Assembly: GCA_050179685.1 (NCBI GenBank)
Contig: JBFXEW010000005.1
Span: 13,911-77,910 of the forward strand
Origin: Salinivirgaceae bacterium
GTDB lineage: Bacteria > Bacteroidota > Bacteroidia > Bacteroidales > SZUA-534
Direction of reading: 5' to 3'
DNA: 64,000 nucleotides
The position numbers and the translations under genes were made by a program. The notes under the pieces are model-generated. The model worked only from the letters and a program-made list of their open reading frames with translations, was not told the origin of the DNA and ran no database searches. This document shows positions 15,631 to 45,637 of this stretch, piece after piece (within the stretch, counting starts at the first letter, position 1; every line of letters starts with the position of its first letter).

Positions 15631-15651
15631 AATTTTAAACAAATACCCATA

Positions 15652-16478: not shown

Positions 16479-16593
16479 TACAAGTAAATAGCATTTAATC
16501 AAAAAAAGACGAATAAAGAGTTCTAAAAATCTAATTTTGTGCGTAAGGAATGGTAGATTTTTCCGTTCTAAACGATTGAAATAGTTACTAATT

Positions 16594-18057
16594 ATGAAAT
16601 ATCACCTGGTAGTTTTGGGCTGTCAAATGAATATCTCTGACAGCGAACGGGTTAAAGCAGTTATTGAATCGATGGGATTTACCCATACCGATAATGAAGA
16701 TGAAGCCACCTTGTTGGGTGTTTTGTCGTGTTCAGTGCGGCAAAAACCTATCGATAAGGTTTACAACAGGATTCATGTGTGGAACAGGCAAAAAAACAAG
16801 CGAAATATCATAACCTTTGTTTCAGGATGCGTGCTGCCCGACGACAGGGAAAAATTCATGAAACTTTTCGATTTTGTATTTCCCATGAGCGAATTGGGCG
16901 ATTTTCCGCAAATGCTTCGTGAATACGGGGTTGCTTCTCCCCTTTCGTTAAGTCAGGATAAAGAAAGTACCCTTAATGTTGAAGAAGCATTAAGTACAGT
17001 TGGCACCAAAAGTGAAAACCAAAACCTACTGAATCCTTTAACAAAATATTCGGCTTCAAAACCTGTTTTACCAAATAATAAAGATATTTTCCAGCTTTGG
17101 AACGTTAAACCACAATATCAATCGGAGTTTGAAGCCTATGTTCCGATTCAAAACGGATGCGATAAGTTTTGTTCCTACTGCGCGGTTCCCTTTACCCGGG
17201 GACGTGAAGTTTCACGCCCATCGGCTGAAATAATTGATGAAGTAACGCAACTAATGAAAAATGGCTACAAATCAATCACACTTTTGGGACAAAATGTAAA
17301 TTCCTATGGCTTGGATCGAGAAGAAGAAATATCGTTTGCCGAATTGCTGACTGAGATTGGAAAAGTTGGTGAATCGCTGCAGAATCCGGCCTGGATATAT
17401 TTTACTTCGCCCCATCCGCGCGATATGAGCCGCGATGTAATTGAAGCCATAGCCAAGTATCCGGTGCTGGCCAAACAAATTCACCTGCCCTTGCAAAGTG
17501 GCGACGATAAAGTGCTTGTTAAAATGAATCGCAAGCACAATTTGGATCGCTACCGCGAAAGTGTTGCCGATATTCGTGAATTAATTCCTCAGGCCACCTT
17601 ATTTACTGACATCATTGTTGGTTTTACCGGTGAAACCGAAGAACAATTCATGAACACCATGCATAGTTTCGATGAATTCCAATACAATATGGCCTACATT
17701 GCTATGTATTCGCCCCGTCCCGGTGCCCAAAGTTACCGCTGGGAAGATGATATTCCCCAGGAAACAAAAAAAGATCGTTTAAAACGCCTGAGCGAAAAAC
17801 TGGAAGAAATTTCAGGTGCTTACAATCAACAATTACTTGGAAAAGAAGTGCAGGTATTGGTTCGTTCAACCGAACGTAAAACCGGTTTCCTTTCGGGACA
17901 TACTGAAGGAAAGCTGGTTACCCGGATAAAAAGTAAGGACCAATCACTAATCGGTAAGTTTGTAAAAGTCCGGATTACTGAAAGCGCCGATTTATCGATT
18001 GCCGGTGAATTGGTTACTGTTTTAGAAGACAAAATTATTCCTGTTTCAATAAGTTAA
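16594..18057 (+). CDS. miaB: MiaB-family radical SAM tRNA methylthiotransferase
   Basis: 487 aa with N-terminal GCQMN, radical SAM CDKFCSYCAVP and a C-terminal TRAM-like domain. Confidence 0.75.
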   Translation: MKYHLVVLGCQMNISDSERVKAVIESMGFTHTDNEDEATLLGVLSCSVRQKPIDKVYNRIHVWNRQKNKRNIITFVSGCVLPDDREKFMKLFDFVFPMSELGDFPQMLREYGVASPLSLSQDKESTLNVEEALSTVGTKSENQNLLNPLTKYSASKPVLPNNKDIFQLWNVKPQYQSEFEAYVPIQNGCDKFCSYCAVPFTRGREVSRPSAEIIDEVTQLMKNGYKSITLLGQNVNSYGLDREEEISFAELLTEIGKVGESLQNPAWIYFTSPHPRDMSRDVIEAIAKYPVLAKQIHLPLQSGDDKVLVKMNRKHNLDRYRESVADIRELIPQATLFTDIIVGFTGETEEQFMNTMHSFDEFQYNMAYIAMYSPRPGAQSYRWEDDIPQETKKDRLKRLSEKLEEISGAYNQQLLGKEVQVLVRSTERKTGFLSGHTEGKLVTRIKSKDQSLIGKFVKVRITESADLSIAGELVTVLEDKIIPVSIS

Positions 18058-18175
18058 GTAAGCTTTATAGTTTTTTAGCTCGCTTTTATAGTTTATATTA
18101 AGATATTCGCATCTTATATAATTTAATATATACAGGAACGGAAGTATAATACACCATTGCAAAAGAAAGAATAAA

Positions 18176-19519
18176 ATGAATGTATCGTTTAAAACCCTGG
18201 GTTGCCGCTTAAATCAGCACGAAACCGATGCTTTGGTTTCGGCTTTCGATCGTGCCGGTTATCAAATAGTCGACTTTAAAGAGCAAGCCGATATCACAAT
18301 TATAAACACCTGTACGGTTACCAGCCAAAGTGACCATAAATCGCGAAACATCATTCAGCAGGCTATACAAACCAATCCCAAAGGCAAAGTTATTGTTACC
18401 GGATGTATGGCTGAGCAATATAAAACCGATTTGGAGCAAATACCAGGTGTGGCTATGGTAATTAATAATAAAGACAAAAGTGGAATACTTAATCTGGTAC
18501 AACAAAAAATTGGTGTCGCTGCTTCAGAACAAACGCATACTGGCGTATTTAATTACGAACCGGTACAAAAAAGCCTGCATACCCGTGCCGCTATAAAAAT
18601 TCAGGATGGATGCGACAATTATTGCACTTTTTGTATCATTCCCCAGGTACGTGGGCGAGCTATCAGTCGTCCGGTTAACGAAGTAATTCAGGCTGTTAAA
18701 GATACGGTTGCCAATGGTTTTAAAGAAATTGTGCTTACCGGAGTAAATATTGGTCGTTATTATCATGAGGGAACCCGCTTTACCGGATTGCTGAAACAAA
18801 TACTGGAAATTCCCGGCGATTTTCGTATCCGTATTTCATCGCTCGAACCCGATGGTTTTGGTACCGATTTTATTGAATTGTTCCGGCATCCCAAACTAAT
18901 GCCGCATTTGCATCTTTGCCTGCAATCGGGATCCGACCAAATTCTCTTGAAAATGAGGCGAATGTATACCATAAGCAATTACATGGACTTGATAAATAAA
19001 ATAAAAGCAAGCTACACCCATTTTAATCTTACTACCGACATAATTGTGGGTTTCCCTGGTGAAACCGATAAACAGTTTAAAGAAACATTAAATATTGTTA
19101 AACAAATCGGCTTTAGTCATGTTCATACCTTTAAATATTCGGTACGCCAGGGAACTTATGCCGAACGGATGCCAAATCATGTGGATGAAAAAATAAAAAA
19201 TAAACGAAGCGAAATGCTCCGAATGCTATCAGATAAAAATAAAAGAAGTTATTATCAGCAGTTTATTGGTAAAACAGAACGTGTGTTGGTAGAAAAAGAT
19301 TTAGGCAATAATTGGTATTTGGGATATGGCGAACATTATATTCCGGTTATGTTTCAACATCCGCAGTATTTAAAGAACCAATGGATGGATGTAAAAATAA
19401 CACAACTCACTGGTGGTGAACGCTTGATGGTTCAGGGCAATGCCATTACTAACCGGATAGTAGCAACTAATAAACAAAAGAAAGCTTATGAGCTCCCAAG
19501 CTATCAAATCGCAGATTGA
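18176..19519 (+). CDS. mtaB: MtaB-type tRNA (t6A37) methylthiotransferase
   Basis: 447 aa with FKTLGCRLNQHETDAL and radical SAM CDNYCTFCIIP. It belongs to the same superfamily as the upstream gene but has the MtaB-type N-terminus. Confidence 0.8.
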   Translation: MNVSFKTLGCRLNQHETDALVSAFDRAGYQIVDFKEQADITIINTCTVTSQSDHKSRNIIQQAIQTNPKGKVIVTGCMAEQYKTDLEQIPGVAMVINNKDKSGILNLVQQKIGVAASEQTHTGVFNYEPVQKSLHTRAAIKIQDGCDNYCTFCIIPQVRGRAISRPVNEVIQAVKDTVANGFKEIVLTGVNIGRYYHEGTRFTGLLKQILEIPGDFRIRISSLEPDGFGTDFIELFRHPKLMPHLHLCLQSGSDQILLKMRRMYTISNYMDLINKIKASYTHFNLTTDIIVGFPGETDKQFKETLNIVKQIGFSHVHTFKYSVRQGTYAERMPNHVDEKIKNKRSEMLRMLSDKNKRSYYQQFIGKTERVLVEKDLGNNWYLGYGEHYIPVMFQHPQYLKNQWMDVKITQLTGGERLMVQGNAITNRIVATNKQKKAYELPSYQIAD

Positions 19520-21056
19520 TATCGATTCAGCGGTGTTTAAAGAAAACTTTGAACACAACCTAAAACTGGCCAACGAGCTAAAAGAAAAGCTGTTAAATGT
19601 AATCGATCACGCCAACAAACAAGCCATCGAAAAGCATAAAGAGCGGGGCAAGTTACTGGCACGGCAACGCATAGACATACTCATTGACGAAGGTACCCCA
19701 TTTCTGGAACTATCGGCTTTAGCTGCCTGCAATCAATGGGAAGACCAATTTCCTTCTGCCGGAGTTGTTGCAGGAATTGGTTTGGTTGAAGGGGTGCAAT
19801 GCATGATAGTAGCCAACGATGCCACGGTTAAAGGAGGAACTTATATAAAGGAAACCATAAAAAAACACGTACGCGCCCAGGAAATTGCGTTACAAAATAA
19901 TTTACCCTGTATTTATCTGGTCGATTCGGGTGGCGTTTTTCTGCCCGAGCAGGCTAATGTTTTTCCCGATCGGTTCGATTTTGGGAGGGTTTTTTACAAC
20001 CAATCCAAATTATCGGCAAAGGGAATTCCGCAGATTTCGGTAGTAATGGGTTCTTGCACAGCCGGCGGAGCTTATGTTCCGGCTATGAGCGATCAAACCA
20101 TTATTGTGAAAAACCAGGGAACTATTTTTATTGGTGGACCACCATTGGTTAAAGCAGCAACGGGCGAAGAAGTTACAGCCGAGGAACTTGGCGGAGCTTA
20201 TGTTCACACCGCCATATCGGGGGTTGCCGATTATCTTGCCGAGGACGATTTAGATGCCTTGAGAATCTGTCGAAACCTGATTCAGCAAGCCAATCAGAAA
20301 AAAGCACCTGAAATTCATGAAGCTGAAGAACCCATTTATCCTGCATCGGAATTGTATGGATTGATTCCGGCTGCCAACAAAAAAACGGTTCATCCCTACG
20401 AAATAATTGCTCGCCTTACCGATGGCAGTTTATTTCATGAATTCAAACAAAACTACGCGGGTAATCTGATTACCGGATTTGCATCCATTGGAGGATTTCA
20501 AACCGGAATTATTGCCAACAATGGTTTTTTAAATGCCGAAGCAGCACGCAAAGGCGCCCATTTTATTGAATTGTGCGATCAAAGAGGGATTCCTTTGTTG
20601 TTTTTACAGAATATTACCGGTTTTATTGTTGGAAAAACCCATGAACATCAAGGTATTGCGCGCGATGGAGCAAAAATGATACACGCCGTAGCCAATGCCG
20701 GAGTTCCTAAAATTACCCTGGTAATTGGTGGTTCGTACGGTGCTGGAAATTATGCAATGGCTGGTCGCGCTTACGATCCTGAATTTTTGTTTTTATGGCC
20801 AAATGCAAAAACAGCGGTAATGGGTGGCGAGCAGGCAGCATCGGTTCTGCAAACTATTAAAAACGATACCAATCAAAAGGAGCATCCTTTGATTCAGCAG
20901 TTTTTTAATGAGAGTTCGGCTTATTTTTCAACTTCGCGACTATGGGACGATGGTATTATTGATCCGCTTGATACCCGGCAAATATTGGCTTTAGCGCTTT
21001 CGGTAGTTACAAACAAAAAAATTAAAAAAGGAACCTACGGAGTTTATCGTATGTAA
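19488..21056 (+). CDS. acyl-CoA carboxylase carboxyltransferase (beta) subunit, methylcrotonyl-CoA carboxylase-like
   Basis: 522 aa with the two-domain carboxyltransferase pattern (VANDATVKGGT..., MGSCTAGGAYVPAMSD, GGSYGAGNYAM). It overlaps the mtaB 3' end by 32 nt. Confidence 0.8.
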   Translation: MSSQAIKSQIDIDSAVFKENFEHNLKLANELKEKLLNVIDHANKQAIEKHKERGKLLARQRIDILIDEGTPFLELSALAACNQWEDQFPSAGVVAGIGLVEGVQCMIVANDATVKGGTYIKETIKKHVRAQEIALQNNLPCIYLVDSGGVFLPEQANVFPDRFDFGRVFYNQSKLSAKGIPQISVVMGSCTAGGAYVPAMSDQTIIVKNQGTIFIGGPPLVKAATGEEVTAEELGGAYVHTAISGVADYLAEDDLDALRICRNLIQQANQKKAPEIHEAEEPIYPASELYGLIPAANKKTVHPYEIIARLTDGSLFHEFKQNYAGNLITGFASIGGFQTGIIANNGFLNAEAARKGAHFIELCDQRGIPLLFLQNITGFIVGKTHEHQGIARDGAKMIHAVANAGVPKITLVIGGSYGAGNYAMAGRAYDPEFLFLWPNAKTAVMGGEQAASVLQTIKNDTNQKEHPLIQQFFNESSAYFSTSRLWDDGIIDPLDTRQILALALSVVTNKKIKKGTYGVYRM

Positions 21057-21169
21057 TAGAAACTATGACAAAAACCGGCTTTCATAGAAAATTAATGAGC
21101 AACTTTTTAACTGAATTAACTGTTAAATGGATAACTTAGCTACATAATTACTATCAAAATATTACCATT

Positions 21170-21955
21170 ATGACAGATTTGATTCAAATTGAAAAAAATA
21201 ATAATGTGATGACGGTGCGGCTTAACCGACCTGAAAAACGCAATGCTTTGAATGCAAAAATGATTGGCGATTTGATGAAGCTGACTCAGGAATTGCAGCA
21301 CGACACCAGCATCGACATTGTTGTACTAAAAGGGAAAGGCGATAATTTTTGTGCCGGAGCCGATTTGTGCTGGTTCAAAAAAGCAATGGAAATGCCTGAA
21401 GAAGAACGAATTACTACATTAAAAGCTTTACCCGTTTTTCTGCGTACCTGGAATCGCCTGCCACAAACCACCATTACAGTAGGTCATGGTTTTTTGTACG
21501 GTGGAGCTTTGGGATTGCTGGCTGTAAGCGATTTCGTAATTCTTGAACAAAACAGTCACTTACGCCTGAGCGAAGTGTTACTGGGAGTTATTCCGGCTTC
21601 CATTGCACCCTATTTAATTCGCCGCATGGGATTTAAGCGCAGCAAAGCGCTGATGCTTTCGGCTGAAGCTATTAACGCCCAACTGGCTCTGGCCTATGGT
21701 TTAGCCGATAAAATTGGCCCCTTCGAAAAATTGCTTGAAATTGAACAACGACTGATTGAAAACATACAACGTTCGGCTCCTGAAACGCGCCGAATGCTTA
21801 AAAAATACCTGTTTGATATTGTAAACAGAGAAATTAACGAAGAGATGTCGGACATTGCAGCCCGAGGTCTTTCCGATGCTTTAAACACGGAGATTGCTAA
21901 GGAGTTTATTCAGTCTTTTTCCGATCAAAACGGAGAAAGCTCATGTAATGACTAA
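21170..21955 (+). CDS. enoyl-CoA hydratase/isomerase family (methylglutaconyl-CoA hydratase by context)
   Basis: 261 aa with crotonase-fold motifs RPEKRNALN, FCAGADL and GGALGL. It lies between the two carboxylase subunits. Confidence 0.7.
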   Translation: MTDLIQIEKNNNVMTVRLNRPEKRNALNAKMIGDLMKLTQELQHDTSIDIVVLKGKGDNFCAGADLCWFKKAMEMPEEERITTLKALPVFLRTWNRLPQTTITVGHGFLYGGALGLLAVSDFVILEQNSHLRLSEVLLGVIPASIAPYLIRRMGFKRSKALMLSAEAINAQLALAYGLADKIGPFEKLLEIEQRLIENIQRSAPETRRMLKKYLFDIVNREINEEMSDIAARGLSDALNTEIAKEFIQSFSDQNGESSCND

Positions 21956-21976
21956 TTAAAAAGAATTAAACAATTA

Positions 21977-23938
21977 ATGATAACAAAAATACTAATTGCA
22001 AACCGGGGCGAAATAGCCCGCCGAATAATTAAAACAGCCAAAAAACTAGGCATTTTAACGGTGGGTATTTACACCAACGACGAGCCCAATAATGCCTGGG
22101 CCAGCGAAGCGGACGAAAAAGTCTTCCTTCCGGGGAACGCTTTATCTGAAACCTGGCTGAATATGGATGAAATTATTGATTTGGCGCTTGAAACCTCATG
22201 CAATGCCATTCATCCCGGATACGGTTTTCTCTCTGAAAATGCAGCATTTGCCCGTAAGTGCAGCGAAAAGCAATTGGTATTTATTGGCCCATCAGCCGAA
22301 GCCATGGAATTGATGAGCGATAAAATTGTTTCCCGAAGCTTCGCTAAAAAAGCCGGTGTGCCGATTGCTTTTGCTTTGGAAGGAAATCAGGAAGCAATTC
22401 TAAACCAAGCCCATACTTTGCCTTACCCGGTAATCATTAAAGCCAGTGCGGGTGGTGGCGGTAAAGGTATGCACATTGTGTATAACACAGCTGAATTGGA
22501 AAAAAAGCTCGAAAAAGCCCAACGCGAAGCAAACAATTGGTTTGGCAACGGAACCGTTTATGTAGAACAATATTTTGAAGAAGCCCGCCATATCGAAGTT
22601 CAAATAATGGGCGACAGTCATGGGAATGTGATTCACCTTTATGAACGGGAATGCACCCTGCAACGGAACTACCAAAAAATAATTGAGGAAGCACCCTCTC
22701 CCACACTAAATAACCAACAACGTGAAGCTATTTGTGCTTCGGCTGTAACGCTGGCTAAAGCAGCAAAATACAACAACGCTGGAACCATCGAGTTTTTATG
22801 GGCCAACAATGAATTTTACTTTCTTGAAATGAATACCCGAATCCAGGTGGAACACCCGGTAACTGAAATGATTACCGGACTTGACCTGGTAGAGTTGCAA
22901 TTATCCGTCAGCAATAATTTACCCCTGCAATTCGGACAAAAAGATGTTAAAATTAACGGAGTAGCTGTTGAAGCGCGTATTTATGCCGAAAAACCCGAAG
23001 AAAACTTTAAGCCAACAGCAGGTATGCTGCATCATATAAAAACGGTAAAACATCCCCAATTGCGATTCGATAATACCTACGAATCGGGAAATGAAGTGGT
23101 AACCACTTACGATGGAATGATTGGAAAACTTATTGTTCACCAAAACCAGCGTAACCAAGCTTTGCAATGGCTGGCACAATGCATTTCTGAAACTCAAATA
23201 CATGGAGTTGAAACCAACTTATCGTTTTTATACCGTTTACTTACCCACCAAAAGGTAATTAGCAACAATATATATACCCGGTTTATAAACAATGAATTGG
23301 AAGGTATAAACCAGATTGAAAAGCCTGTTAATTTTGATGAAATTATTCTTGCTGCTTATGCTGCTGCTTTGGTAGAAAAGAAAACAGTGCAAAAAAACGC
23401 ATGGTCGCAACACACCAGCATTTTAGCCACTGCAAAACAAACGGTTTTAATTAATGGAAACCCGGGCAATTTTAAGCTAATTACACAGCCAACGGGCTTT
23501 CAATTAGTATTAAACGAAAAAATGTTTAATGTTTTTTATCATTCTTTAAACAACAATACAATAAATCTTGTTATAGACGGAGTTAAACATAAAGTAATTG
23601 TGACGAAGGGAAGGGATGCGTTCTGGGTTCAATACAGGAACCTGCTTTCGCTTGTGCGAAGCCAGCATTTATTGAGTCAGGCAAGTTTGCCAAAAAAAGC
23701 AGGATTCAATGGAACTGTGGGTGATTTTGAAATCAAATCGCCACTACATGGTAAAATTGCCTCGATAATGGTGAAACAGGGACAAACAGTTGAACAAGGG
23801 ACTAATATCCTTACCATAGAATCGATGAAAACAGAAAATCATATAGCATCGCCAGCAAGTGGTGTTGTTGATCTGATTTTGATTGAGAAAGATGCATTGG
23901 TTAAAGAAGATCAACTATTAATAACGTTTAAAAATTAA
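21977..23938 (+). CDS. biotin carboxylase + biotin carrier (alpha) subunit of acyl-CoA carboxylase, methylcrotonyl-CoA carboxylase-like
   Basis: 653 aa with N-terminus ILIANRGEIARRII, an ATP-grasp domain and the C-terminal biotinylation motif ESMKTE. Confidence 0.85.
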   Translation: MITKILIANRGEIARRIIKTAKKLGILTVGIYTNDEPNNAWASEADEKVFLPGNALSETWLNMDEIIDLALETSCNAIHPGYGFLSENAAFARKCSEKQLVFIGPSAEAMELMSDKIVSRSFAKKAGVPIAFALEGNQEAILNQAHTLPYPVIIKASAGGGGKGMHIVYNTAELEKKLEKAQREANNWFGNGTVYVEQYFEEARHIEVQIMGDSHGNVIHLYERECTLQRNYQKIIEEAPSPTLNNQQREAICASAVTLAKAAKYNNAGTIEFLWANNEFYFLEMNTRIQVEHPVTEMITGLDLVELQLSVSNNLPLQFGQKDVKINGVAVEARIYAEKPEENFKPTAGMLHHIKTVKHPQLRFDNTYESGNEVVTTYDGMIGKLIVHQNQRNQALQWLAQCISETQIHGVETNLSFLYRLLTHQKVISNNIYTRFINNELEGINQIEKPVNFDEIILAAYAAALVEKKTVQKNAWSQHTSILATAKQTVLINGNPGNFKLITQPTGFQLVLNEKMFNVFYHSLNNNTINLVIDGVKHKVIVTKGRDAFWVQYRNLLSLVRSQHLLSQASLPKKAGFNGTVGDFEIKSPLHGKIASIMVKQGQTVEQGTNILTIESMKTENHIASPASGVVDLILIEKDALVKEDQLLITFKN

Positions 23939-23988
23939 CAAAATATTTGTTTTACTTATAACACAAAACTCTAACATAATTTTAAAAG

Positions 23989-25146
23989 ATGAACGCATTA
24001 CTCAAAGATCATCATAATCACTGGAGGCAGAAAATCAGAAAGTTTGCCGAAGAAAAAGTTAAACCGGTTATCGGAGCCTACGATCGCAAAGCACTTTTTC
24101 CCCATGAACTTATTGAAACCCTGGGCAAAGAAACCGGTGTTTTTGGTATGTATATTCCCGAGCAATATGGTGGCAAGGGAACCGACACCTTGTCGTATAT
24201 TATTGCTGTTGAAGAATTGGCCCGAATCGACAGTTCAGTAGCTGCTACCGTGGCTGCACACAATAGCCTCGGTATTGGTCCCATTTTAAATTTTGGAACC
24301 GAAGAGCAAAAAATGCAATGGCTACCCCAACTATGCACCGGAAAAGCCTTATGGGCTATGGGACTTACCGAAATAAACGCAGGCAGCGATGCAAAAGCAG
24401 TAGAAACAACTGCCGATTTTAAAGACGGTAAATGGATTATTAATGGAACTAAACTTTATATCACCAATGCCGCTTCCGTATTGTCAAAAGGTATCACCGT
24501 GGCTGCAAGAACCGGTGAAAACAATGGCAAAGCAGAATTCTCAGCCATTCTCCTTCCCTATCCAACACCCGGATTTGAACGCAAACTGATGGAGGATAAA
24601 CTGGTTTGGCGTGCCGCTGACAACGGAGAATTGTTCTTCAATAATTGTGAGGTTCCTGAGAATTACCTGTTAGGAAAACGCGGCGATGGATTAAAGATTA
24701 TTCTGAAAACCATCGATGCCGGACGACTTTCCATTGCAGCCATGGGCGTTGGATTAGCGCAAGGTGCGTTTGAAATGGCGCGTGAGTACGCCATGACTCG
24801 TTTTCAATTTGGTAAACCCATCGCACACCTGCAATCCATCGCGTTTAAACTGGCCGATATGGCCGTGAAAATTGAAAACGCACGCAATACCCTGTATAAT
24901 GCCTGTTGGATGAAAGATCAGGGCTTGCCTTTTGGTACGCAATCGGCCATGGCAAAATTATACGCCAGCGAAATTGCCCGCGAAGTAGCCGACGAAGCCG
25001 TTCAGATTTTTGGTGGTGCAGGCTTATTGGAATCGAACCCCATTGCCCGTTTTTACCGCGACCAGCGCTTATTGCAAATTGGTGAGGGAACATCTGAGAT
25101 TCTGCGCCTGGTAATATCGCGCCATGTACTCGACGAAAATAAATAA
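23989..25146 (+). CDS. acyl-CoA dehydrogenase (isovaleryl-CoA dehydrogenase-like by context)
   Basis: 385 aa of the ACAD family (GLTEINAGSDA, ...QIFGGAGL..., YRDQRLLQIGEGTSEI). Confidence 0.85.
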   Translation: MNALLKDHHNHWRQKIRKFAEEKVKPVIGAYDRKALFPHELIETLGKETGVFGMYIPEQYGGKGTDTLSYIIAVEELARIDSSVAATVAAHNSLGIGPILNFGTEEQKMQWLPQLCTGKALWAMGLTEINAGSDAKAVETTADFKDGKWIINGTKLYITNAASVLSKGITVAARTGENNGKAEFSAILLPYPTPGFERKLMEDKLVWRAADNGELFFNNCEVPENYLLGKRGDGLKIILKTIDAGRLSIAAMGVGLAQGAFEMAREYAMTRFQFGKPIAHLQSIAFKLADMAVKIENARNTLYNACWMKDQGLPFGTQSAMAKLYASEIAREVADEAVQIFGGAGLLESNPIARFYRDQRLLQIGEGTSEILRLVISRHVLDENK

Positions 25147-25154
25147 GTCACTGA

Positions 25155-26456
25155 ATGGACAAAAAAGAAACTATTGAGGGATTTTACAAGCTCAGCCGGA
25201 CTGAAAAAATTGCTTTGCTTAAACTGAGCATCGAATCGAAAGAGCTTTTAAATCGTGCACTAATTAGTGATCCCGAGATAGCCGGCATTATTGATGAACT
25301 GAGTGAAAATACCATTTCACATTATCCATTCCCCTTGGGAGTAGCTCCCAACGTATGGATAAATAACAAAGTTTATACACTTCCTCTGGTTACCGAAGAA
25401 AGTTCAGTAGTGGCAGCCATTGCTAAAGCAGCTAAGTTCTGGTCGCAATACGGCGGATTTCAGTCCACGGTATCCGGAACCGAAAAGAAAGGCCAGGTTC
25501 ACTTTTTCTGGAAAGGTGATAAAAAACTGCTTTCCGATAAATTTGATGCACTAAAAGACTTTATTCTTTTCCGCATCAGGCCTTATACCCGACGCATGCA
25601 AAAACGTGGCGGAGGCATTTCGAATATTGTCTTAGCCGATAAAACCACCTTGCTCGATAATTATTTCCAGCTCGATGTTTCGTTCGAAACCCTCGATGCC
25701 ATGGGAGCAAATTTCATAAATTCCTGTTTGGAAGACATGGCCAAATCGCTCCGACAATTTGTAAGCTGTGATTTGGAGATGGACGAAAACCTGCTCGAAA
25801 TTAACATGGCCATTCTTTCGAACTACACACCCAATTGCCGGGTTAAAGCTTCTGCATCTATTCCGGTTGCAGATTTAAACCACTATGGTGAACAGCTTAA
25901 CGTCAGTAATCTGGCAAAAAAGCTGGAACAAGCCCTTGCCATCGCGTCGGTCGATGTTAACAGGGCGGTAACGCACAACAAAGGAATTTTTAATGGAATT
26001 GATGCGATAGCTTTAGCCACTGGTAACGACTGGCGTGCTTTAGAAGCAGGCGCTCATGCCTATGCTTCGCATAAAGGCACGTATGCTTCTTTATCGAAAG
26101 CTACAATTAGTGAAGATATTTTCACAATGGAACTTGAAATTCCATTAGCTGTAGGTACAGTTGGAGGAATTACCAATTTACATCCCCTGGCTAGAATCGC
26201 TATGGAAATACTTGGGAAACCCAATGCCGAAGAGTTGATGCAAATAATGGCGGTAAGCGGACTGGCTGCCAACTTTTCAGCCCTTTTAGCCTTGACTACT
26301 TCGGGAATTCAAAAAGGTCACATGAGTATGCACCTGACAAACATCTTGCGACAATTAGAAGCAACAGAATCGCAAAAAGAAGCTGCCAAAGTGTTTTTTA
26401 AAGACAAAACCATCAGCTACACTGAAGTGGCCGATTACCTGAATACAAACCTGTAA
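25155..26456 (+). CDS. mvaA: class II hydroxymethylglutaryl-CoA reductase
   Basis: 433 aa with motifs EESSVVAA, DAMGANF, NKGIFNGIDA and TVGG, typical of bacterial class II HMGR. Confidence 0.85.
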   Translation: MDKKETIEGFYKLSRTEKIALLKLSIESKELLNRALISDPEIAGIIDELSENTISHYPFPLGVAPNVWINNKVYTLPLVTEESSVVAAIAKAAKFWSQYGGFQSTVSGTEKKGQVHFFWKGDKKLLSDKFDALKDFILFRIRPYTRRMQKRGGGISNIVLADKTTLLDNYFQLDVSFETLDAMGANFINSCLEDMAKSLRQFVSCDLEMDENLLEINMAILSNYTPNCRVKASASIPVADLNHYGEQLNVSNLAKKLEQALAIASVDVNRAVTHNKGIFNGIDAIALATGNDWRALEAGAHAYASHKGTYASLSKATISEDIFTMELEIPLAVGTVGGITNLHPLARIAMEILGKPNAEELMQIMAVSGLAANFSALLALTTSGIQKGHMSMHLTNILRQLEATESQKEAAKVFFKDKTISYTEVADYLNTNL

Positions 26457-26467
26457 ATCGCTAAGCA

Positions 26468-27388
26468 TTGCAAATTCAAGAGTTCAGAAGTAACGGAAAA
26501 CTCTTACTCACCGGTGAATACCTGGTTCTAAAAGGTGCCAAAGCTTTGGCTCTGCCACTAAAGCCAGGCCAAACTTTACAGGTTGAACCCAATAAAACGG
26601 ATAAACTGAATTGGATAAGCACCGAAAAAGGAACACCATTTTTTTCGGCTAGCTACCGTACCAATAATCTTGAAATAATTGAAAGCAGCGATGAAATCCG
26701 TGGAGCTTACATCCAACAGCTGCTCAGGGAAGCAAAACTATTAAATCCCAACTTTTTAAATGCTGGGCAGGCCTATAAAATAAAAGCCAATATTGAATTC
26801 AATAAGTTGTGGGGCCTGGGCTCAAGCAGTACGCTCATTAACAACCTGGCGCAATGGGCCGGAGTTGATGCTTTTACGCTAAACCAGCAAATTTCGAAGG
26901 GCTCGGGTTACGATATTGCCTGTGCGCAACAAGCAAAACCTTTGGTTTATCAATTACAAAATAATAAACCTCATATTGAAACAGTGCATTTTAATCCTCC
27001 CTTTTTAAAGCAGCTTAACCTGGTTTACCTAAACCAAAAAATGCCCACCGAAACCAACATTGGTCGCTTTCTAAAAAACAATACGGTGCCGGAATCGCTA
27101 ATAAAAAGCATCAACTTACTAACTGAAGCAGTTCTGGTTTGTACTGAAATGAGTAAATTTCAGCGCTTAATGCAGGAACACGAAGATATTTTAGCAAACC
27201 TGTTGCAGGTACCCACAGTAAAAGAACAACATTTCAGCGATTTTAAAGGTACACTTAAATCACTTGGGGCCTGGGGTGGCGATTTTATTCTAAGCATCTC
27301 CGATGAATCCTTTGAAGAACAACAAAACTATTTTAGCCGTCGCGGATTCAAAACAATTTTGCCCCTTGCGCCGTTATTATGCGTATAA
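26468..27388 (+). CDS. GYDIA-family GHMP kinase (candidate phosphomevalonate kinase)
   Basis: 306 aa with TTG start. It contains the eponymous GSGYDIA motif and the GHMP loop GLGSSST. It sits between HMGR and the decarboxylase. Confidence 0.7.
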   Translation: MQIQEFRSNGKLLLTGEYLVLKGAKALALPLKPGQTLQVEPNKTDKLNWISTEKGTPFFSASYRTNNLEIIESSDEIRGAYIQQLLREAKLLNPNFLNAGQAYKIKANIEFNKLWGLGSSSTLINNLAQWAGVDAFTLNQQISKGSGYDIACAQQAKPLVYQLQNNKPHIETVHFNPPFLKQLNLVYLNQKMPTETNIGRFLKNNTVPESLIKSINLLTEAVLVCTEMSKFQRLMQEHEDILANLLQVPTVKEQHFSDFKGTLKSLGAWGGDFILSISDESFEEQQNYFSRRGFKTILPLAPLLCV

Positions 27389-27430
27389 ACCTTTCCAACC
27401 TAAACATATTTTGCACTTAAATGGCTAAAC

Positions 27431-28471
27431 ATGAAAAAAATAAGCTGGCAAAGTCCGTCGAATATAGCATTGATAAAATATTGGGGTAAAACCGGCGACC
27501 AAATGCCGACCAATCCTTCCATTAGTTTTACCCTTGAAAAATCGTATACCGAAACATCGCTTGGTTACAAAAAGGACGAATCAATTAATGGTATTAAAGT
27601 AGATTTTTTGTTCGAAGGTAAAGCCAATCCCGAGTTTGAGAAACGATTGCTTAAGTACCTGAATCGAATTTCGGAATACATTCCGGTTATGCAGCAACTG
27701 CACCTCAGCATCGAAAGCAAAAACAGTTTTCCACATTCGTCAGGAATTGCCAGTTCGGCCAGCAGTTATAGTGCTTTAGCCTTGTGTCTGGTAAGTATGG
27801 AGGAAGAACTTACGGGTGTTCCCTTTACCCGCGATGCTTTTTATCAGAAAGCCTCGCTTTTGGCCCGACTGGGTTCCGGAAGTGCTGCCCGCAGTGTATA
27901 CGGAGGCTGTAATTTATGGGGCAAAACCCCGGGTATTACCGAATCGAGCAATTTGTATTCGGTACCTTTAAACCACCAGGTGCATCCCGATTTTTTAAAC
28001 TATAAAGATGCCATATTGTTGGTCTCAAAAAGCACAAAAAAAGTTTCCAGTTCGGTGGGACATCAGCTGATGAACAAGCACCCTTTTGCGGAGGCTAAGT
28101 TTAAAGAATCGTACAAAAACACCGAAAAAATGTTAGGCATTCTGAAAACCGGCGATGCCATGGAGTTTGCCAATCTGGTAGAAGCTGAAGCGCTTTCGTT
28201 GCATGCCATGATGATGACCAGTAATCCGGCTTACCTGCTTATGGAACCGCATACCCTGGCCATTATCCGGAAAATTGGCGCATTCCGTCACGAAACAGGC
28301 ATTCCTGCCTGCTTTACTTTAGATGCCGGAGCCAATGTCCACATGCTTTATCCTTCGAATGCCACAGAACAAATACAATCGTTCATAAAAAAAACACTGA
28401 TGCCCTATTGCTTCAACTATCAGTGGATTGACGATACCCTTGGAGCCGGTCCGCTTCAGCTTAATACTTAA
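27431..28471 (+). CDS. mvaD: diphosphomevalonate decarboxylase
   Basis: 346 aa with SNIALIKYWGK, GIASSASS and LDAGANV. Confidence 0.85.
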   Translation: MKKISWQSPSNIALIKYWGKTGDQMPTNPSISFTLEKSYTETSLGYKKDESINGIKVDFLFEGKANPEFEKRLLKYLNRISEYIPVMQQLHLSIESKNSFPHSSGIASSASSYSALALCLVSMEEELTGVPFTRDAFYQKASLLARLGSGSAARSVYGGCNLWGKTPGITESSNLYSVPLNHQVHPDFLNYKDAILLVSKSTKKVSSSVGHQLMNKHPFAEAKFKESYKNTEKMLGILKTGDAMEFANLVEAEALSLHAMMMTSNPAYLLMEPHTLAIIRKIGAFRHETGIPACFTLDAGANVHMLYPSNATEQIQSFIKKTLMPYCFNYQWIDDTLGAGPLQLNT

Positions 28472-28491
28472 TAGAAATCCTGATCAAGCAG

Positions 28492-29373
28492 ATGAAAGCA
28501 TTTTCAGCTAAGATTATTTTATTTGGCGAATACAGCATACTCAGTGGCTCCAAAGCTTTGGCTATTCCCTTTCCTGCATTTTCCGGCAAGCTGCAGGCGC
28601 AGCATGCACTTTGCGATAATTCCCTGGCATCGGCACAAATTATCAAAGAACTTTTTGAATACCTGAAGAATCAACACTTTGAAGCCAATCCCAATTTTGA
28701 AAAACTACAGCATCAAATAGCACAGGGATTGTATTTTGAAAGCACCATACCGAATGGTTATGGCCTGGGAAGTTCGGGAGCCCTGGTGGCTGCAGTTTAT
28801 CATCATTTTTTCAAGGGACTTGAAGATCTATCCATTTATCAACATAAAGCCGATTTAGCAAAATTAGAATCCTATTTTCATGGAACCAGTTCCGGCATCG
28901 ACCCGCTGGTATCTTTTCTGAATGCTCCTGTATTGGTTCAGGAAACTACGGTAGAGACACTTCAACTTAAAACAAGCTCTACCTACCAGCTTATATTAAT
29001 TGATACCGGACAAAAAGCAACTACGCAAGGCCTGGTCCAATATTATAAAGATTTATTAAGCTCTGCAAAACAAAAGGAAGCTGCAATGCAACTCAATGAA
29101 AGCACCAACCGCTGTATAGCTGGTTTTTTGCAAAACAAGCTGCAATTTGACGATTTAAAAACACTTTCCGAGCTTCAACAGCACTTGCTAAAACCCATGT
29201 TTGTTTTAAACAAAGTCCTGCTCGAAGCTGTGAATCGTTTTAAGGATGATGCATCATTAAAACTTTGCGGTTCAGGAGGTGGCGGTTTTGTTTCAGCCTG
29301 GGTGCGTAAAAGCAAAAGCCCGGAATTCATCGATTATCTTGACCATCATAAGCTTACTTACCATCGGGTATAA
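28492..29373 (+). CDS. mvk: mevalonate kinase (GHMP family)
   Basis: 293 aa with KIILFGEYSIL, the GHMP loop PNGYGLGSSGALVAA and C-terminal GSGGGGF. Confidence 0.7.
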   Translation: MKAFSAKIILFGEYSILSGSKALAIPFPAFSGKLQAQHALCDNSLASAQIIKELFEYLKNQHFEANPNFEKLQHQIAQGLYFESTIPNGYGLGSSGALVAAVYHHFFKGLEDLSIYQHKADLAKLESYFHGTSSGIDPLVSFLNAPVLVQETTVETLQLKTSSTYQLILIDTGQKATTQGLVQYYKDLLSSAKQKEAAMQLNESTNRCIAGFLQNKLQFDDLKTLSELQQHLLKPMFVLNKVLLEAVNRFKDDASLKLCGSGGGGFVSAWVRKSKSPEFIDYLDHHKLTYHRV

Positions 29374-29381: not shown

Positions 29382-30653
29382 CTATTCCTGCTTTCGAAAA
29401 GGTTTTATCATTACCCGCAACGATTGATCGCGCAGTAGATAGCTTTGTGCCCAGTTGATAAAAATGAATACCCGGTTTTTCACCCCAACAATCGACATCA
29501 GGTGTACAAACAACCAAAGCAACCAGGCTACAAATCCCGATAAACGCACTGCGGGCAAATCGGCAACGGCCATATTCCTCCCTATTGTAGCCAAACTTCC
29601 TTTATCGCGGTAGCTAAAAGCTTTCCATTTTCCTGTTTTTAAGTTTTTAGCCAGGTTCTTTGCCTGCTGAATAGCAACCTGAGCCACCTGCGGATGACCG
29701 TCAGTATAGTTTTGCTCTGTTTGAAAAGCCATATCGCCAATGGCAAAAACCCGCGGTGCGTCTTCAACCTGATTAAAAGCATCAACCTTTATTCGGTTGC
29801 CACGGGCGTAAATACTTTCGGGTAAGCCCGGTAGTGTGAATCCCCTGACTCCGGCAGTCCACAATAAATTTCGGCAGCTTACCACAGTTCCGGAACCCAG
29901 ACTTACCGTTTCGCCATCGAAGTTTTCAATCTTTTCATTAAGGAACACTTGTACACCCAGGCGATGAAGGTATTTTAAAGCATCCGCTCCGGCCTTTTCA
30001 CTCATTCCATTAAGCAAGCGGGGCCCGGCTTCATAAAGCTGAATCTGCATCAACGAAAAGTCCAGTTCGGGATAGTCTTTAAATAGTACATTGTTCTTCA
30101 TCTCGGCTATGGCTCCCGACAGTTCAACTCCCGTGGGCCCTCCTCCTACAATTACAACCGACATCAGACTTGCCTGTTCGGCATTATCCTGTGTAAGAAT
30201 TGCCTTTTCAAAACTTTCCAAGATTCGGTTTCTTACATAAATTGCTTCTGCGGTCGACTTCATGGGTAAGCCATGTTTTTCGAGCGATGCCGAACCAAAG
30301 TAATTATTTCCTACCCCGGTTGCCAGCACCAGGTAGTCGTAAGGCAACGGTCCATCTGTAGTATCAATTTGTTTTGTTGATACATTTATCTGCTTTAACG
30401 CGGTATTGCGAAAATGCAGGTTGGCATGCTTCTGAAATATTTTACGCACGGGAAACGAAATGGAAGCGGGCTCAATACCCGAAGTGGCTACCTGATAAAA
30501 TAGCGGCTGAAACTGATGAAAATTGTTTTTATCGATAAGAACCACCTGATATTTCGAGCCAGCCAGACTGCGGGCCAGTTTCAGTCCGGCAAAGCCTGCG
30601 CCGACAATTACTATACGTTCTTTTCCATTTTCTGGAAGGTTAAATACTTGCAT
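29382..30653 (-). CDS. ndh: type II NADH:quinone oxidoreductase (NDH-2)
   Basis: 423 aa with two Rossmann motifs (VIVGAGFAGL, VIVGGGPTGVE) and a C-terminal amphipathic/membrane segment. Confidence 0.85.
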   Translation of the reverse strand: MQVFNLPENGKERIVIVGAGFAGLKLARSLAGSKYQVVLIDKNNFHQFQPLFYQVATSGIEPASISFPVRKIFQKHANLHFRNTALKQINVSTKQIDTTDGPLPYDYLVLATGVGNNYFGSASLEKHGLPMKSTAEAIYVRNRILESFEKAILTQDNAEQASLMSVVIVGGGPTGVELSGAIAEMKNNVLFKDYPELDFSLMQIQLYEAGPRLLNGMSEKAGADALKYLHRLGVQVFLNEKIENFDGETVSLGSGTVVSCRNLLWTAGVRGFTLPGLPESIYARGNRIKVDAFNQVEDAPRVFAIGDMAFQTEQNYTDGHPQVAQVAIQQAKNLAKNLKTGKWKAFSYRDKGSLATIGRNMAVADLPAVRLSGFVAWLLWLFVHLMSIVGVKNRVFIFINWAQSYLLRDQSLRVMIKPFRKQE

Positions 30654-31698: not shown

Positions 31699-31781
31699 GG
31701 ACATTATATTATTACTCTTATCAGTTAACCTTTTTATTTTGAATTTGTTAATTATTCAAATCAACTTGTCATTTATACCTA

Positions 31782-32429: not shown

Positions 32430-32481
32430 AAAGAGTCTTTCAAAAAGTCATCGGGAAGTATACTTATACAATGTTAGCATT

Positions 32482-43983: not shown

Positions 43984-45147
43984 ATGTTTGACAGCCCTTA
44001 TAACCTGGAAACAAAAACCGGAAATCCGGTTCAGTTTTACGACGACCTGAGTTCCTTTACCGATTTGGTGCTACAAAAAGGCAGGCAGCCCATGCAAAAC
44101 TTTCTGAACGACTTTTCATTGTTCACAAAAGAGAGAAAGCTACGTAGCTACCAGCCCGAGGAACATCTGATGGAAATACTGATGAGCGGCATCTTTTGGA
44201 AGAACTATCAAAGTTTCCTGTCAATCGACGCCTTGTTTTACGAACCCCTGTTCAATCGCTTGTATCATTGGCGCAAGAAATATCCCCGGTTCAAAGTCCG
44301 TATCGATAGTTTTCGTGGTAAACTGGCTTATCGTTACCTGAGTCAGAAGCGCAACAGCCAAATTCCGCTTTACCGGCGCTTTGAATACCTGAACAGTTGG
44401 TTAAACTGCTCCAAAGAGTTTATTCAGGAAACCGAGAGGCTCAATCAGTGGGAACGCTTTCTTGAAGCACAACCTTTAAGTTATCAAAAGGACTTTTGGC
44501 AGACAACTGAAGCATTTGCCGACTGGTTTATCCTGCAGGCTGCCATTCACCTGTCGGAATACACCAAAGGCTGGGACGATTTTATGATGGACCATTACGC
44601 TGAATACCAAAAACGCGAGGATTTTATTTTCTGTACGCGCAAGCCCTCGGAATATCACCTGAATATGGTGGCAGCCGAAGTAATGAACCGTGCTTTACGA
44701 AAAGGTTTTGAAAACTCATCCGACAAAATACTCTTGCTGCCTACCTGCATGGCCAAGTCAAACAACTGCAAAGCCAAAATGGAAGAGGGCAATCTGGTTT
44801 GTCAACAGTGTATGGCTGAATGTACTGTAGCAAAACTAAGCCACGAAATGAACAAACAAGGGGTTCGTACTGTTCTTATACCGCATTCAACAGGTTTCTC
44901 AAAATACTTAAAACCCTGGGAGAATTCGAGCAACACGGGACTGATTGGTGTGGCTTGTGTTTTGAATCTGCTAACAGGAGGTTATGAGATGCAAAAATTG
45001 AATATTCCCTCACAATGTGTATTTTTGGACTCGTGTGGATGCAAAAAACACTGGTTAAGCGGCCAACCAACCCGGCTTAACCTCCAACAATTAAATAAGA
45101 TAATTATACATGAAGAATCAAAACAACCAGTTAATAGCACTTGTTGA
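43984..45147 (+). CDS. Cys-rich protein with C-terminal DUF116-like domain, function unknown
   Basis: ATG at 43984. The C-terminal ~150 aa (LLLPTCMAKSNNC...CQQCMAEC...LIGVACVLNL...LDSCGC) resembles DUF116 as I remember it. The N-terminal ~230 aa is unrecognised. Confidence 0.45.
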   Translation: MFDSPYNLETKTGNPVQFYDDLSSFTDLVLQKGRQPMQNFLNDFSLFTKERKLRSYQPEEHLMEILMSGIFWKNYQSFLSIDALFYEPLFNRLYHWRKKYPRFKVRIDSFRGKLAYRYLSQKRNSQIPLYRRFEYLNSWLNCSKEFIQETERLNQWERFLEAQPLSYQKDFWQTTEAFADWFILQAAIHLSEYTKGWDDFMMDHYAEYQKREDFIFCTRKPSEYHLNMVAAEVMNRALRKGFENSSDKILLLPTCMAKSNNCKAKMEEGNLVCQQCMAECTVAKLSHEMNKQGVRTVLIPHSTGFSKYLKPWENSSNTGLIGVACVLNLLTGGYEMQKLNIPSQCVFLDSCGCKKHWLSGQPTRLNLQQLNKIIIHEESKQPVNSTC

Positions 45148-45637
45148 TGCAGACGATAAAGTAATTGGGTACGACGAAAAAATGAAAGTGCACGAAGAAG
45201 GAACCCTTCATCGTGCATTTTCTGTTTTTGTTTTCAATAAAAAAGGGGAATTGCTGCTACAACAACGGGCACACGAAAAATACCACTCGCCGGGACTCTG
45301 GACCAACACCTGTTGCAGCCATTTGCTGCCCGACATGAGCATGGAAGAATGCGTACACGACCGTTTGCAATTCGAAATGGGTTTCGATTGCCCGGTGAAT
45401 TTCCGTTTTTCGTTTACCTATCACATTCCCTTCGACAATGGTTTAATTGAACACGAAACCGATCATGTGTACTTTGCCACCTGGGAAGGTCAACCCCGGG
45501 TAAATCCCGATGAAGTTGCCGGCCACAAATGGATTTCGATTCCGCAACTTAAAAGCGATATGGCAGCGCATCCCGAAAACTATACTTACTGGTTTAAGTA
45601 CATCATGAAACACCATGAAAAGGAGCTTTTTTCTTAG
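45110..45637 (+). CDS. idi: isopentenyl-diphosphate delta-isomerase, type 1 (Nudix)
   Basis: 175 aa with HRAFSVFVFN...LLLQQRA..K..SPGLWTNTCCSH and ...EHE... catalytic blocks. Confidence 0.85.
   Translation: MKNQNNQLIALVDADDKVIGYDEKMKVHEEGTLHRAFSVFVFNKKGELLLQQRAHEKYHSPGLWTNTCCSHLLPDMSMEECVHDRLQFEMGFDCPVNFRFSFTYHIPFDNGLIEHETDHVYFATWEGQPRVNPDEVAGHKWISIPQLKSDMAAHPENYTYWFKYIMKHHEKELFS

Follow-up and report, generated by a model that had tools for sequence, protein, structure and literature searches.

Can a bacterium run leucine-derived carbon into isoprenoid synthesis from a single gene string? This question is raised by a 64,000-nucleotide (nt) stretch of a Salinivirgaceae bacterium of marine-sediment type (contig JBFXEW010000005.1, positions 13,911 to 77,910; hereafter the window), in which four genes resembling those of leucine catabolism (liu genes) are followed directly, on the same strand, by four genes of the mevalonate pathway. 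Both pathways share (S)-HMG-CoA (short for 3-hydroxy-3-methylglutaryl-CoA), and the bacterial cytoplasm places no compartment barrier between them. Thus, leucine carbon must partly reach mevalonate if both halves are expressed and no HMG-CoA lyase, the hallmark enzyme of the leucine pathway, outcompetes this flow. The starting compound, isovaleryl-CoA, derives from leucine or 2-ketoisocaproate; such bacteria also use it to prime their iso-branched fatty acids. We consider it fairly probable that the block constitutes a co-expressed, operon-like pathway leading from isovaleryl-CoA through (S)-HMG-CoA and mevalonate to isopentenyl diphosphate (IPP).

The eight-gene string and the conservation of its junction

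An earlier note on this DNA had described eight co-directional, tightly spaced genes between positions 19488 and 29373, and both the open reading frames (ORFs) and our family scans, which took in window ORFs of at least 150 amino acids (aa), agree with that description (Table 1). The string comprises the beta subunit (carboxyltransferase, CT) of 3-methylcrotonyl-CoA carboxylase (MCC), an enoyl-CoA hydratase (ECH), the MCC alpha subunit (biotin carboxylase, BC), an acyl-CoA dehydrogenase (ACAD), a class II HMG-CoA reductase, a GYDIA-family kinase, a diphosphomevalonate decarboxylase and a mevalonate kinase. According to the ORF coordinates, the successive gaps are 113, 21, 50, 8, 11, 42 and 20 nt, the 8 nt lying between the ACAD stop and the reductase start, that is, at the junction of the two halves.

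The comparative set comprised 89 loci, gathered from context look-ups and from a scan of species-representative genomes and annotated by tblastn with the window proteins, while protein and locus searches covered the best 80-120 matches from all taxa. This synteny survey of Bacteroidota, a check proposed in the earlier note, revealed that the fusion recurs: about 13 diverged lineages, drawn from Salinivirgaceae, Prolixibacteraceae, Marinifilaceae and further Bacteroidales, have the ACAD gene next to the reductase gene, in several genomic contexts and with reductase identities to the window of 49-89%. Among the matches listed, the closest reductases belong to Salinivirgaceae metagenome-assembled genomes (MAGs; 88% identity) and to 'Bacteroidetes bacterium HGW' (86%), which puts the organism in class Bacteroidia, within Bacteroidales or Marinilabiliales according to the taxonomy followed. 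An identical protein was met only on a contig of 5.8 kb, assembled from a public sequencing run. The gap from the ACAD gene to the reductase or isomerase gene measures 6-131 nt in all loci but one (L007, 224 nt), and the ACAD-reductase gap is as short as 6-11 nt in five lineages. The flanking genes differ, including MiaB, MtaB and LipA in some loci, an outer-membrane efflux and an alginate-export protein in a metagenome contig (L174) and a MutS-like protein in Ancylomarina; MiaB is co-conserved upstream in L002, L004, L006, L008 and L009. Moreover, identity to the window falls in parallel across the liu and mevalonate genes (Spearman rho 0.88 for ACAD versus reductase and 0.92 for CT versus reductase), which fits inheritance of the block as a unit. 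Since the junction survives rearrangements across Bacteroidales families, a functional unit that would lead from isovaleryl-CoA through HMG-CoA to IPP is favoured. About 60 Flavobacteriia loci carry the reductase-GYDIA pair only, without the liu fusion.

Two observations concern individual loci of this set. In the 'Bacteroides sp.' MAG (L043, 2949-5159), CT and hydratase read as one 736-aa ORF, in which the CT profile stops at position 408 of 493. The two genes may truly be fused, or the MAG may be misassembled here. Additionally, three MAGs named Bacteriovoracaceae (L031, L039, L047) hold a Bacteroidota-type string of type-2 IPP isomerase (IDI2; partial at the contig edge in L031), reductase, GYDIA kinase, decarboxylase and mevalonate kinase, with the reductase about 50% identical to that of the window, which suggests transfer between phyla or mis-binning.

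The earlier note had also stated that neither HMG-CoA synthase nor lyase is encoded in the block or the window, and the searches bear this out. Neither enzyme was found in the family scans of the ORFs of the 64-kb window, nor by tblastn of the window with Staphylococcus aureus MvaS and a lyase N-terminus; the MvaS probe was validated against PDB 1xpk at 872 bits. Across the 89 loci, tblastn with MvaS likewise gave no HMG-CoA synthase closer than 10 kb to the reductase, and none of the fused clusters contains a lyase. When the 76-aa lyase N-terminus from a variant locus (L009, discussed below) was compared with the protein database, only short unnamed fragments matched.

As to transcription, the 3' end of the MtaB gene overlaps the CT start by 32 nt, as it does in L002 and L004. 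In intergenic DNA, TAnnTTTG, the -7 motif of Bacteroidota, is present at 15789 (5' of an FNR-like gene) and at 16532 (5' of MiaB), and none was found on the plus strand in the intergenic gaps from MtaB through mevalonate kinase. Given this absence beyond the MiaB start region and the MtaB/CT overlap, a single transcription unit from MiaB to mevalonate kinase is plausible, of which MiaB may be the first gene. Our reading uses the single -7 motif alone and weighs it as weak evidence: the paired motif TTTG-N17-21-TAnnTTTG showed no enrichment, and a scan with the sigma-70 model, which is ill-suited to Bacteroidota, gave no more matches than in shuffled sequence. Terminator-like matches were in modest excess over shuffled sequence. 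A type-II NADH dehydrogenase (NDH-2) gene on the minus strand (29382-30653) converges on the mevalonate kinase gene with 8 nt between their ends; it is present in the window, L002 and L003, and is not found in L004, L006, L008 and L009.

Enzymes of the putative route

In the proposed route, the ACAD, characterised by an IGEGT motif, would oxidise isovaleryl-CoA to 3-methylcrotonyl-CoA, which MCC (alpha and beta subunits, with biotin) would carboxylate to 3-methylglutaconyl-CoA, and the AtuE/LiuC-type hydratase would convert the latter to (S)-HMG-CoA. Because the block holds no lyase, HMG-CoA would pass to the class II reductase and yield mevalonate, from which mevalonate kinase, the GYDIA kinase (as phosphomevalonate kinase) and diphosphomevalonate decarboxylase would make IPP. 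The isomerase step could be provided by the type-1 enzyme encoded elsewhere in the window or, in relatives, by an in-cluster type-2 isomerase. Such a route would enter the mevalonate pathway without the need for HMG-CoA synthase, with menaquinone, undecaprenyl phosphate and tRNA prenylation as its probable outlets. The sequences show to which families the genes belong, that their linkage is conserved and that the block encodes neither synthase nor lyase; the substrates of dehydrogenase and hydratase, joint transcription and the flow of carbon are inferred from these.

Against PDB structures, the CT scores 644 bits with human MCC beta and 636 bits with Pseudomonas aeruginosa MCC beta, versus 468 bits with geranyl-CoA carboxylase (GCC) beta and about 250-270 bits with propionyl-CoA carboxylase (PCC) beta; judged by its sequence, it is unambiguously of the MCC type. 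Since this is so, the objection foreseen in the earlier note, namely that the carboxylase might prove to be a propionyl- or acetyl-CoA carboxylase, fails. The alpha subunit carries the Pfam domains Biotin_carb_N, CPSase_L_D2, Biotin_carb_C and Biotin_lipoyl as well as an ESMKT biotinylation motif with the biotinyl-lysine, and among PDB structures it matches P. aeruginosa MCC alpha best (410 bits).

The hydratase is a crotonase (Pfam ECH_1) whose best NCBIfam families are PRK07468 (179 bits) and PRK05674 (139 bits), which we take to be of the gamma-carboxy-enoyl-CoA hydratase (AtuE/LiuC) type. AtuE (PDB 4zu2) is among its best PDB matches, and the alignment of the two pairs YGGALGLL with LGGGFGLA and LSEV with LPET. 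Hence, the window enzyme has an AtuE-like active site, with Gly at the first catalytic-Glu position of classical crotonases, while the second Glu (E135) is kept. The family to which the hydratase belongs (ECH_A) is very small, with about 33 clusters at 55% identity or more among the matches listed, followed by a drop to 39%. Its members carry the JGI annotation methylglutaconyl-CoA hydratase, and the nearest outgroup member sampled in full (L174) also sits in a liu-mevalonate cluster. When the ECH_A alignment was compared with metagenomes, where generic crotonase motifs were matched, the best match listed reached 39% identity and no orthologue appeared among the matches listed. The putative substrate of the hydratase is 3-methylglutaconyl-CoA.

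The dehydrogenase is not a canonical isovaleryl-CoA dehydrogenase (IVD) by sequence. In IVD and in long-chain acyl-CoA dehydrogenase the catalytic base lies on helix G (Glu254 in human IVD), and no Glu occupies the position of Glu376 of medium-chain acyl-CoA dehydrogenase (MCAD) (PMC10925408). The window enzyme scores about 320 bits with PDB structures of the short-chain (SCAD)/Bcd type and 209-223 bits with IVD structures; its catalytic Glu lies in QIGEGT, at the J-K loop position where MCAD and SCAD carry theirs, and Gly stands at the IVD Glu254 position (DAGR aligned with DLER, read by eye). SCAD and Bcd have IYEGT at the same place, as does the second ACAD of the window (59406-60554, beside EtfBA), whereas IGEGT is present in 17 of 17 cluster-linked orthologues, including the L009 copy from a lyase-containing liu operon. 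Tiffany et al. are said to have found in 1997 that human IVD carries the same Tyr-to-Gly change (Gly374), by which the pocket is widened for the branched acyl group. Given the invariance of IGEGT among the orthologues and Gly374 of human IVD, we read the dehydrogenase as working like IVD without belonging to the IVD family. Taken together, the earlier proposal that the first four genes convert isovaleryl-CoA to HMG-CoA is supported by the gene calls and the MCC-type carboxylase and weakened at its first step, where no canonical IVD is encoded.

The mevalonate half comprises a complete lower pathway of the classical, eukaryote type, composed of mevalonate kinase, the GYDIA kinase as probable phosphomevalonate kinase, and diphosphomevalonate decarboxylase. 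The reductase scores 276.8 bits with TIGR00532 (class II; cut-off 259.95) and 390 bits with its best PDB match, 7n7s, and the GYDIA kinase reaches 358.5 bits with NF040656 (cut-off 225). The GYDIA gene lies directly 3' of the reductase gene in most of the roughly 89 loci, and this near-universal pairing argues for a probable role as the Bacteroidota phosphomevalonate kinase, in agreement with the identification of the mevalonate and phosphomevalonate kinases of this phylum by Hayakawa et al. (2017), as cited in PMC6107057. The decarboxylase scores 158.6 bits with TIGR01240, just under the cut-off of 171, and only 87 bits with the phosphomevalonate decarboxylase family NF040704; the mevalonate kinase scores 102 bits with TIGR00549. 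Both are divergent, yet they can still be recognised.

In six loci (L020, L022, L026, L043, L046, L174) a gene of about 330 codons is inserted between the ACAD and reductase genes. Its product has no Pfam match at 1e-5 and scores 110 bits with PDB 2zru and 194 bits with TIGR02151, and on these matches it is a divergent type-2 IPP isomerase. The idea that this gene, lying 5' of the reductase, might encode a new HMG-CoA-forming enzyme was rejected on the same grounds. Since the extra gene encodes an isomerase, the common nine-gene form of the cluster would be a complete set for making IPP and dimethylallyl diphosphate (DMAPP) from isovaleryl-CoA. The divergent IDI2 proteins of Bacteroidota and Bacteriovoracaceae lack a Pfam match at 1e-5 and fall below the TIGR02151 cut-off, and they are likely under-annotated in genomes.

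The earlier note had pointed to idi, menA and MiaB functions in the window, and all three are encoded there. The type-1 idi gene lies directly 5' of the menaquinone genes, with menF, menD, menB and UbiA/menA following it (45110-53126). A MenC-like domain of the enolase superfamily and a MenE-like AMP-binding domain are joined in one 723-aa ORF of this set. Since the listed menF and menD ORFs share 265 nt, the true menD start probably lies later.

Table 1. Genes of the window and the related loci discussed in the text. Positions in the window rows count from its first nucleotide; positions in locus rows refer to the locus named. CT, carboxyltransferase; ECH, enoyl-CoA hydratase; BC, biotin carboxylase; BCCP, biotin carboxyl carrier protein; ACAD, acyl-CoA dehydrogenase; IDI2, type-2 IPP isomerase.
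Feature or locus	Position	Strand	Basis or content
MCC beta subunit (CT)	19488..21056	+	Pfam Carboxyl_trans 480 bits; PDB matches
AtuE/LiuC-type enoyl-CoA hydratase (ECH_A), putative 3-methylglutaconyl-CoA hydratase	21170..21955	+	Pfam ECH_1; PRK07468, PRK05674
MCC alpha subunit (BC + BCCP), 653 aa	21977..23938	+	Domains; PDB match
ACAD with IGEGT motif, putative non-canonical isovaleryl-CoA dehydrogenase	23989..25146	+	All ACAD domains
Class II HMG-CoA reductase	25155..26456	+	Pfam HMG-CoA_red 283 bits; TIGR00532
GYDIA-family GHMP kinase, probable phosphomevalonate kinase	26468..27388	+	NF040656
Diphosphomevalonate decarboxylase	27431..28471	+	Pfam MVD-like_N, MDD_C
Mevalonate kinase (divergent), last gene of the string	28492..29373	+	GHMP_kinases_N; TIGR00549
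MiaB (tRNA i6A37 methylthiotransferase)	16594..18057	+	TIGR01574 378.6 bits (cut-off 355.3)
MtaB (tRNA t6A37 methylthiotransferase)	18176..19519	+	TIGR01579 462 bits (cut-off 357)
Type-1 IPP isomerase (idi), outside the string	45110..45637	+	NF002995 164.9 bits (cut-off 127)
UbiA/menA gene	50045-50953		Within menaquinone gene set 46194-53126
BsuBI/PstI-type restriction endonuclease	32482-33417	-	In the 32429-35057 insertion
Eco57I-like N6 methyltransferase	33365-35032	-	In the 32429-35057 insertion
L002, L003			Full eight-gene string; reductase 86% identical to window
L004, L005, L010 (Marinilabiliales UBA12394)			Full eight-gene string; reductase 71%
L008			Full eight-gene string; reductase 59%
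L006 (isolate Prolixibacteraceae bacterium JC049)			Full eight-gene string; reductase 57%
L007			CT-ECH-BC-ACAD-reductase-GYDIA, then Tat genes
L019			BC-ACAD-reductase and remaining mevalonate genes
L020 (complete chromosome), L026, both Prolixibacteraceae MAGs			CT-ECH-BC-ACAD-IDI2-reductase-GYDIA-decarboxylase-kinase
L043 ('Bacteroides sp.' MAG), L174 (metagenome contig)			Same nine-gene form as L020
L022, L046 (Ancylomarina)			ACAD-IDI2-reductase and rest of mevalonate genes; no MCC genes nearby
Divergent IDI2, L020	9004-10014
Divergent IDI2, L026	8995-9987
Divergent IDI2, L046	8948-9940
Divergent IDI2, L047	8967-10001
Divergent IDI2, L085	8870-9949
L171	8671-12037		Remnant: MiaB, frameshifted MtaB, ECH_A, mevalonate kinase
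L172	101-2830		Remnant: MiaB, ECH_A, 55-aa BC fragment
L170	10001-11655		Remnant: Dus, ECH_A, LipA

Alternative readings and the rest of the window

The variant locus L009 bears on the proposed route from both sides. Its gene order is MiaB-MtaB-ECH-reductase-GYDIA-decarboxylase-kinase-FNR-like-CT-ECH-BC-ACAD-HMGL (reductase 57% identical to the window), that is, a canonical leucine operon ending in HMG-CoA lyase (HMGL) lies directly after a mevalonate operon headed by a hydratase. This hydratase, upstream of the reductase, is the ECH_A orthologue of the window enzyme (69% identity), and the one inside the liu operon is another paralogue (ECH_B; 29%), the type also present in Prolixibacteraceae clusters; ECH_A and ECH_B share PRK07468 and PRK05674 as best NCBIfam families. 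The arrangement shows that a methylglutaconyl-CoA-type hydratase can head a mevalonate operon, a place held by HMG-CoA synthase in other bacteria. Moreover, the L009 ACAD is 60% identical to that of the window and has IGEGT within the CT-ECH-BC-ACAD-HMGL string; since these orthologues belong to a lyase-ending operon, a role of the liu enzymes, including the IGEGT dehydrogenase, in leucine catabolism is supported.

Several observations weigh against a dedicated leucine-to-isoprenoid unit. As the liu genes of L009 end in HMG-CoA lyase beside the mevalonate operon, the same liu enzymes may equally well work in ordinary catabolism. The examples all fall within a single class, Bacteroidia, and thus some of the conservation could reflect inheritance and not selection. 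The dehydrogenase is closer to SCAD/Bcd than to IVD, and its catalytic Glu occupies the MCAD position, so its substrate is read from context alone; the hydratase scores below the NCBIfam cut-offs (350 for PRK07468 and 426 for PRK05674), as do the mevalonate kinase and the decarboxylase below those of their curated families. Finally, three close relatives (L170-L172), with ECH_A 63-73% identical, keep only remnants of the cluster. The cluster has thus been lost repeatedly and is dispensable there, and another source of IPP is therefore likely in the group, probably the methylerythritol phosphate (MEP) pathway; MEP and mevalonate genes have both been reported in a member of the Lentimicrobiaceae, Bacteroidales (PMC11129491). 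The leucine-to-isoprenoid route is hence probably accessory and not the sole one. The channelling of leucine-derived HMG-CoA into isoprenoids, as put forward in the earlier note, consequently gains from the conserved junction, the MCC-type carboxylase and the lack of synthase and lyase in the window, and loses from the non-IVD dehydrogenase, the L009 lyase and the decay of the cluster in relatives.

A bolder version, which we offer only tentatively, holds that the cluster-bearing Bacteroidales lack HMG-CoA synthase altogether and that the eight- to nine-gene string is their sole, self-contained entry into the mevalonate pathway, starting with a novel isovaleryl-CoA dehydrogenase (MCAD-type Glu, Tyr-to-Gly pocket). 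If this were true, isoprenoid and iso-fatty-acid synthesis would share one branched-chain precursor.

Among the competing explanations, the one that survives best, unlikely as we judge it, is that the block consists of two independent modules that are neighbours by descent, a liu set and a mevalonate operon, with lyase and synthase encoded elsewhere and any entry of leucine carbon into isoprenoids incidental. Such an arrangement would resemble Flavobacteriaceae, in which, according to the gene table of PMC4026382 (Table S6), synthase and lyase are encoded away from the scattered mevalonate genes; it would also accord with the lyase at the liu end of L009 and with the restriction of all cases to Bacteroidia. 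Against it stand a junction that survives several rearrangements and differing flanks and an ACAD-reductase gap of a few nucleotides in five lineages. The isomerase gene is inserted between the halves, where no boundary with a promoter-sized gap is seen, no fused cluster contains a lyase, and the HMG-CoA made by the liu enzymes would be the reductase's own substrate in the same compartment.

We regard it as very improbable that the carboxylase acts on another acyl-CoA, be it geranyl-CoA in an Atu-like acyclic-terpene pathway or propionyl- or acetyl-CoA, with the mevalonate link reflecting terpene recycling or coincidence. The set of CT, ECH, BC and ACAD would also fit AtuC, AtuE, AtuF and AtuD, and AtuE is, as mentioned above, one of the closest structures to the hydratase; however, the CT scores set MCC beta above GCC and PCC beta, and the orthologous set of L009 ends in HMG-CoA lyase. 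The geranyl-CoA carboxylase version was rejected on the CT scores.

Scarcely credible is the reverse direction, which the earlier note had offered as an alternative on the model of the myxobacterial isovaleryl-CoA route. Read in this way, the liu half would dehydrate HMG-CoA, decarboxylate the product and end, by reduction, at isovaleryl-CoA for priming iso-fatty acids. Such bacteria do need isovaleryl-CoA (iso-C15:0 is given as major in a Prolixibacteraceae isolate in a preprint, bioRxiv 10.1101/2021.01.06.425552), the dehydrogenase is similar to the Bcd enzymes with which anaerobes reduce enoyl-CoA, and the window has an EtfBA pair, but the cluster holds neither an HMG-CoA synthase to supply HMG-CoA nor an AibA/B-type decarboxylase or AibC-type reductase, the MCC-type carboxylase, dependent on ATP and biotin, would have to run backwards, and the co-encoded kinases and decarboxylase would draw mevalonate irreversibly to IPP, which leaves the reverse route without a coherent input or output.

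The forward pathway from isovaleryl-CoA to IPP thus remains our preferred reading, and the surrounding genes are described here in their own right. An FNR-like flavoprotein gene, MiaB and MtaB lie upstream of the block (15816-19519), and LipA and a second FNR-like flavoprotein gene lie downstream (30790-32429). Next to every radical-SAM enzyme in these flanks stands a possible reductase. The flanking genes accompany the block in the sub-clade of the window (L002, L004, L006, L008 and L009) and not in L020, L026, L043 and L174; a functional link, for instance through MiaB needing prenylated tRNA or LipA serving the branched-chain ketoacid dehydrogenase, is speculative. In comparison with the 83%-identical contig L002, the window has a strain-specific insertion at 32429-35057, with a GC fraction of about 0.355 versus about 0.44 in neighbouring DNA and with genes of the restriction-modification type (Table 1), and a second one at 14143-15747, where an SPFH/Band 7 family gene (14287-15630) lies between an M49 peptidase gene and the FNR-like gene. 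A separate string of beta-oxidation/butyrate type (55927-62331) encodes a crotonase, a 3-hydroxyacyl-CoA dehydrogenase, an archaeal-type (PRK06064-like) thiolase, the IYEGT-bearing ACAD, EtfB and EtfA; the next ORF (62346-63632, 428 aa) has no NCBIfam match. The presence of dnaA (962-2389) places the window near the chromosomal replication origin. No tRNA genes or Rfam families were found in the window.

Comparison with known systems

If the string works as read, a group of common Bacteroidales of sediment and gut-like habitats could make isoprenoid units from leucine or isovaleryl-CoA without thiolase and HMG-CoA synthase. In that case, KEGG-style calls of an 'incomplete mevalonate pathway' for cluster-bearing genomes would need correcting, and the interpretation of studies that label menaquinones and further bacterial isoprenoids of anoxic sediments with carbon isotopes or amino acids would be affected. 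Two enzyme variants that can be tested also emerge, namely the IGEGT acyl-CoA dehydrogenase and the hydratases of the small ECH_A family, and the locus could serve as a compact natural operon for engineering leucine-to-terpenoid routes.

The liu half performs, in the proposed route, the same chemistry from isovaleryl-CoA to HMG-CoA as the Liu pathway of P. aeruginosa (liuABCDE) and Bacillus subtilis (yngJ-E), and in both cases a single string holds MCC alpha and beta together with a gamma-carboxy-enoyl-CoA hydratase and an acyl-CoA dehydrogenase. Unlike the Liu pathway, the fused clusters have no lyase, their dehydrogenase is not of the IVD family (MCAD-position Glu, IGEGT), and HMG-CoA reductase comes next. 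The mevalonate half resembles that of Flavobacterium johnsoniae (Hayakawa et al., 2017, as cited in PMC6107057), where a class II reductase is followed by the GYDIA kinase, the mevalonate kinase is likewise divergent and the diphosphomevalonate decarboxylase is of the classical kind. In Flavobacteriia, however, only reductase and GYDIA kinase are linked and the synthase is encoded elsewhere, whereas here four mevalonate genes are joined to liu genes with no synthase nearby.

The entry of leucine carbon into mevalonate products via HMG-CoA is documented for myxobacteria (PMC7321100), Halobacterium (Yamauchi, 2010, as cited in PMC6155224) and Trypanosoma brucei (PMC5993337). Myxobacteria, Halobacterium and trypanosomatids thus embody the same idea, with leucine passing through HMG-CoA to mevalonate and not to cleavage; there, however, the evidence comes from labelling and genetics and the genes are dispersed, while here the route is proposed from the genes, which form one conserved, operon-like string in Bacteroidales of anaerobic or facultative life. 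The Myxococcus xanthus operon aibR-aibA-aibB-aibC-mvaS also connects the HMG-CoA node with isovaleryl-CoA metabolism at the operon level, but it runs in the opposite direction, and the enzymes it uses (a CoA-transferase-like decarboxylase, an MDR reductase and HMG-CoA synthase) are all absent here. In the literature searched, we found no description of a liu-mevalonate operon in Bacteroidota. Hence, the biochemistry itself is already known; what seems to be new is that the known leucine-isoprenoid connection appears as one gene string, in which the dehydrogenase is non-canonical and the hydratase comes from a private family.

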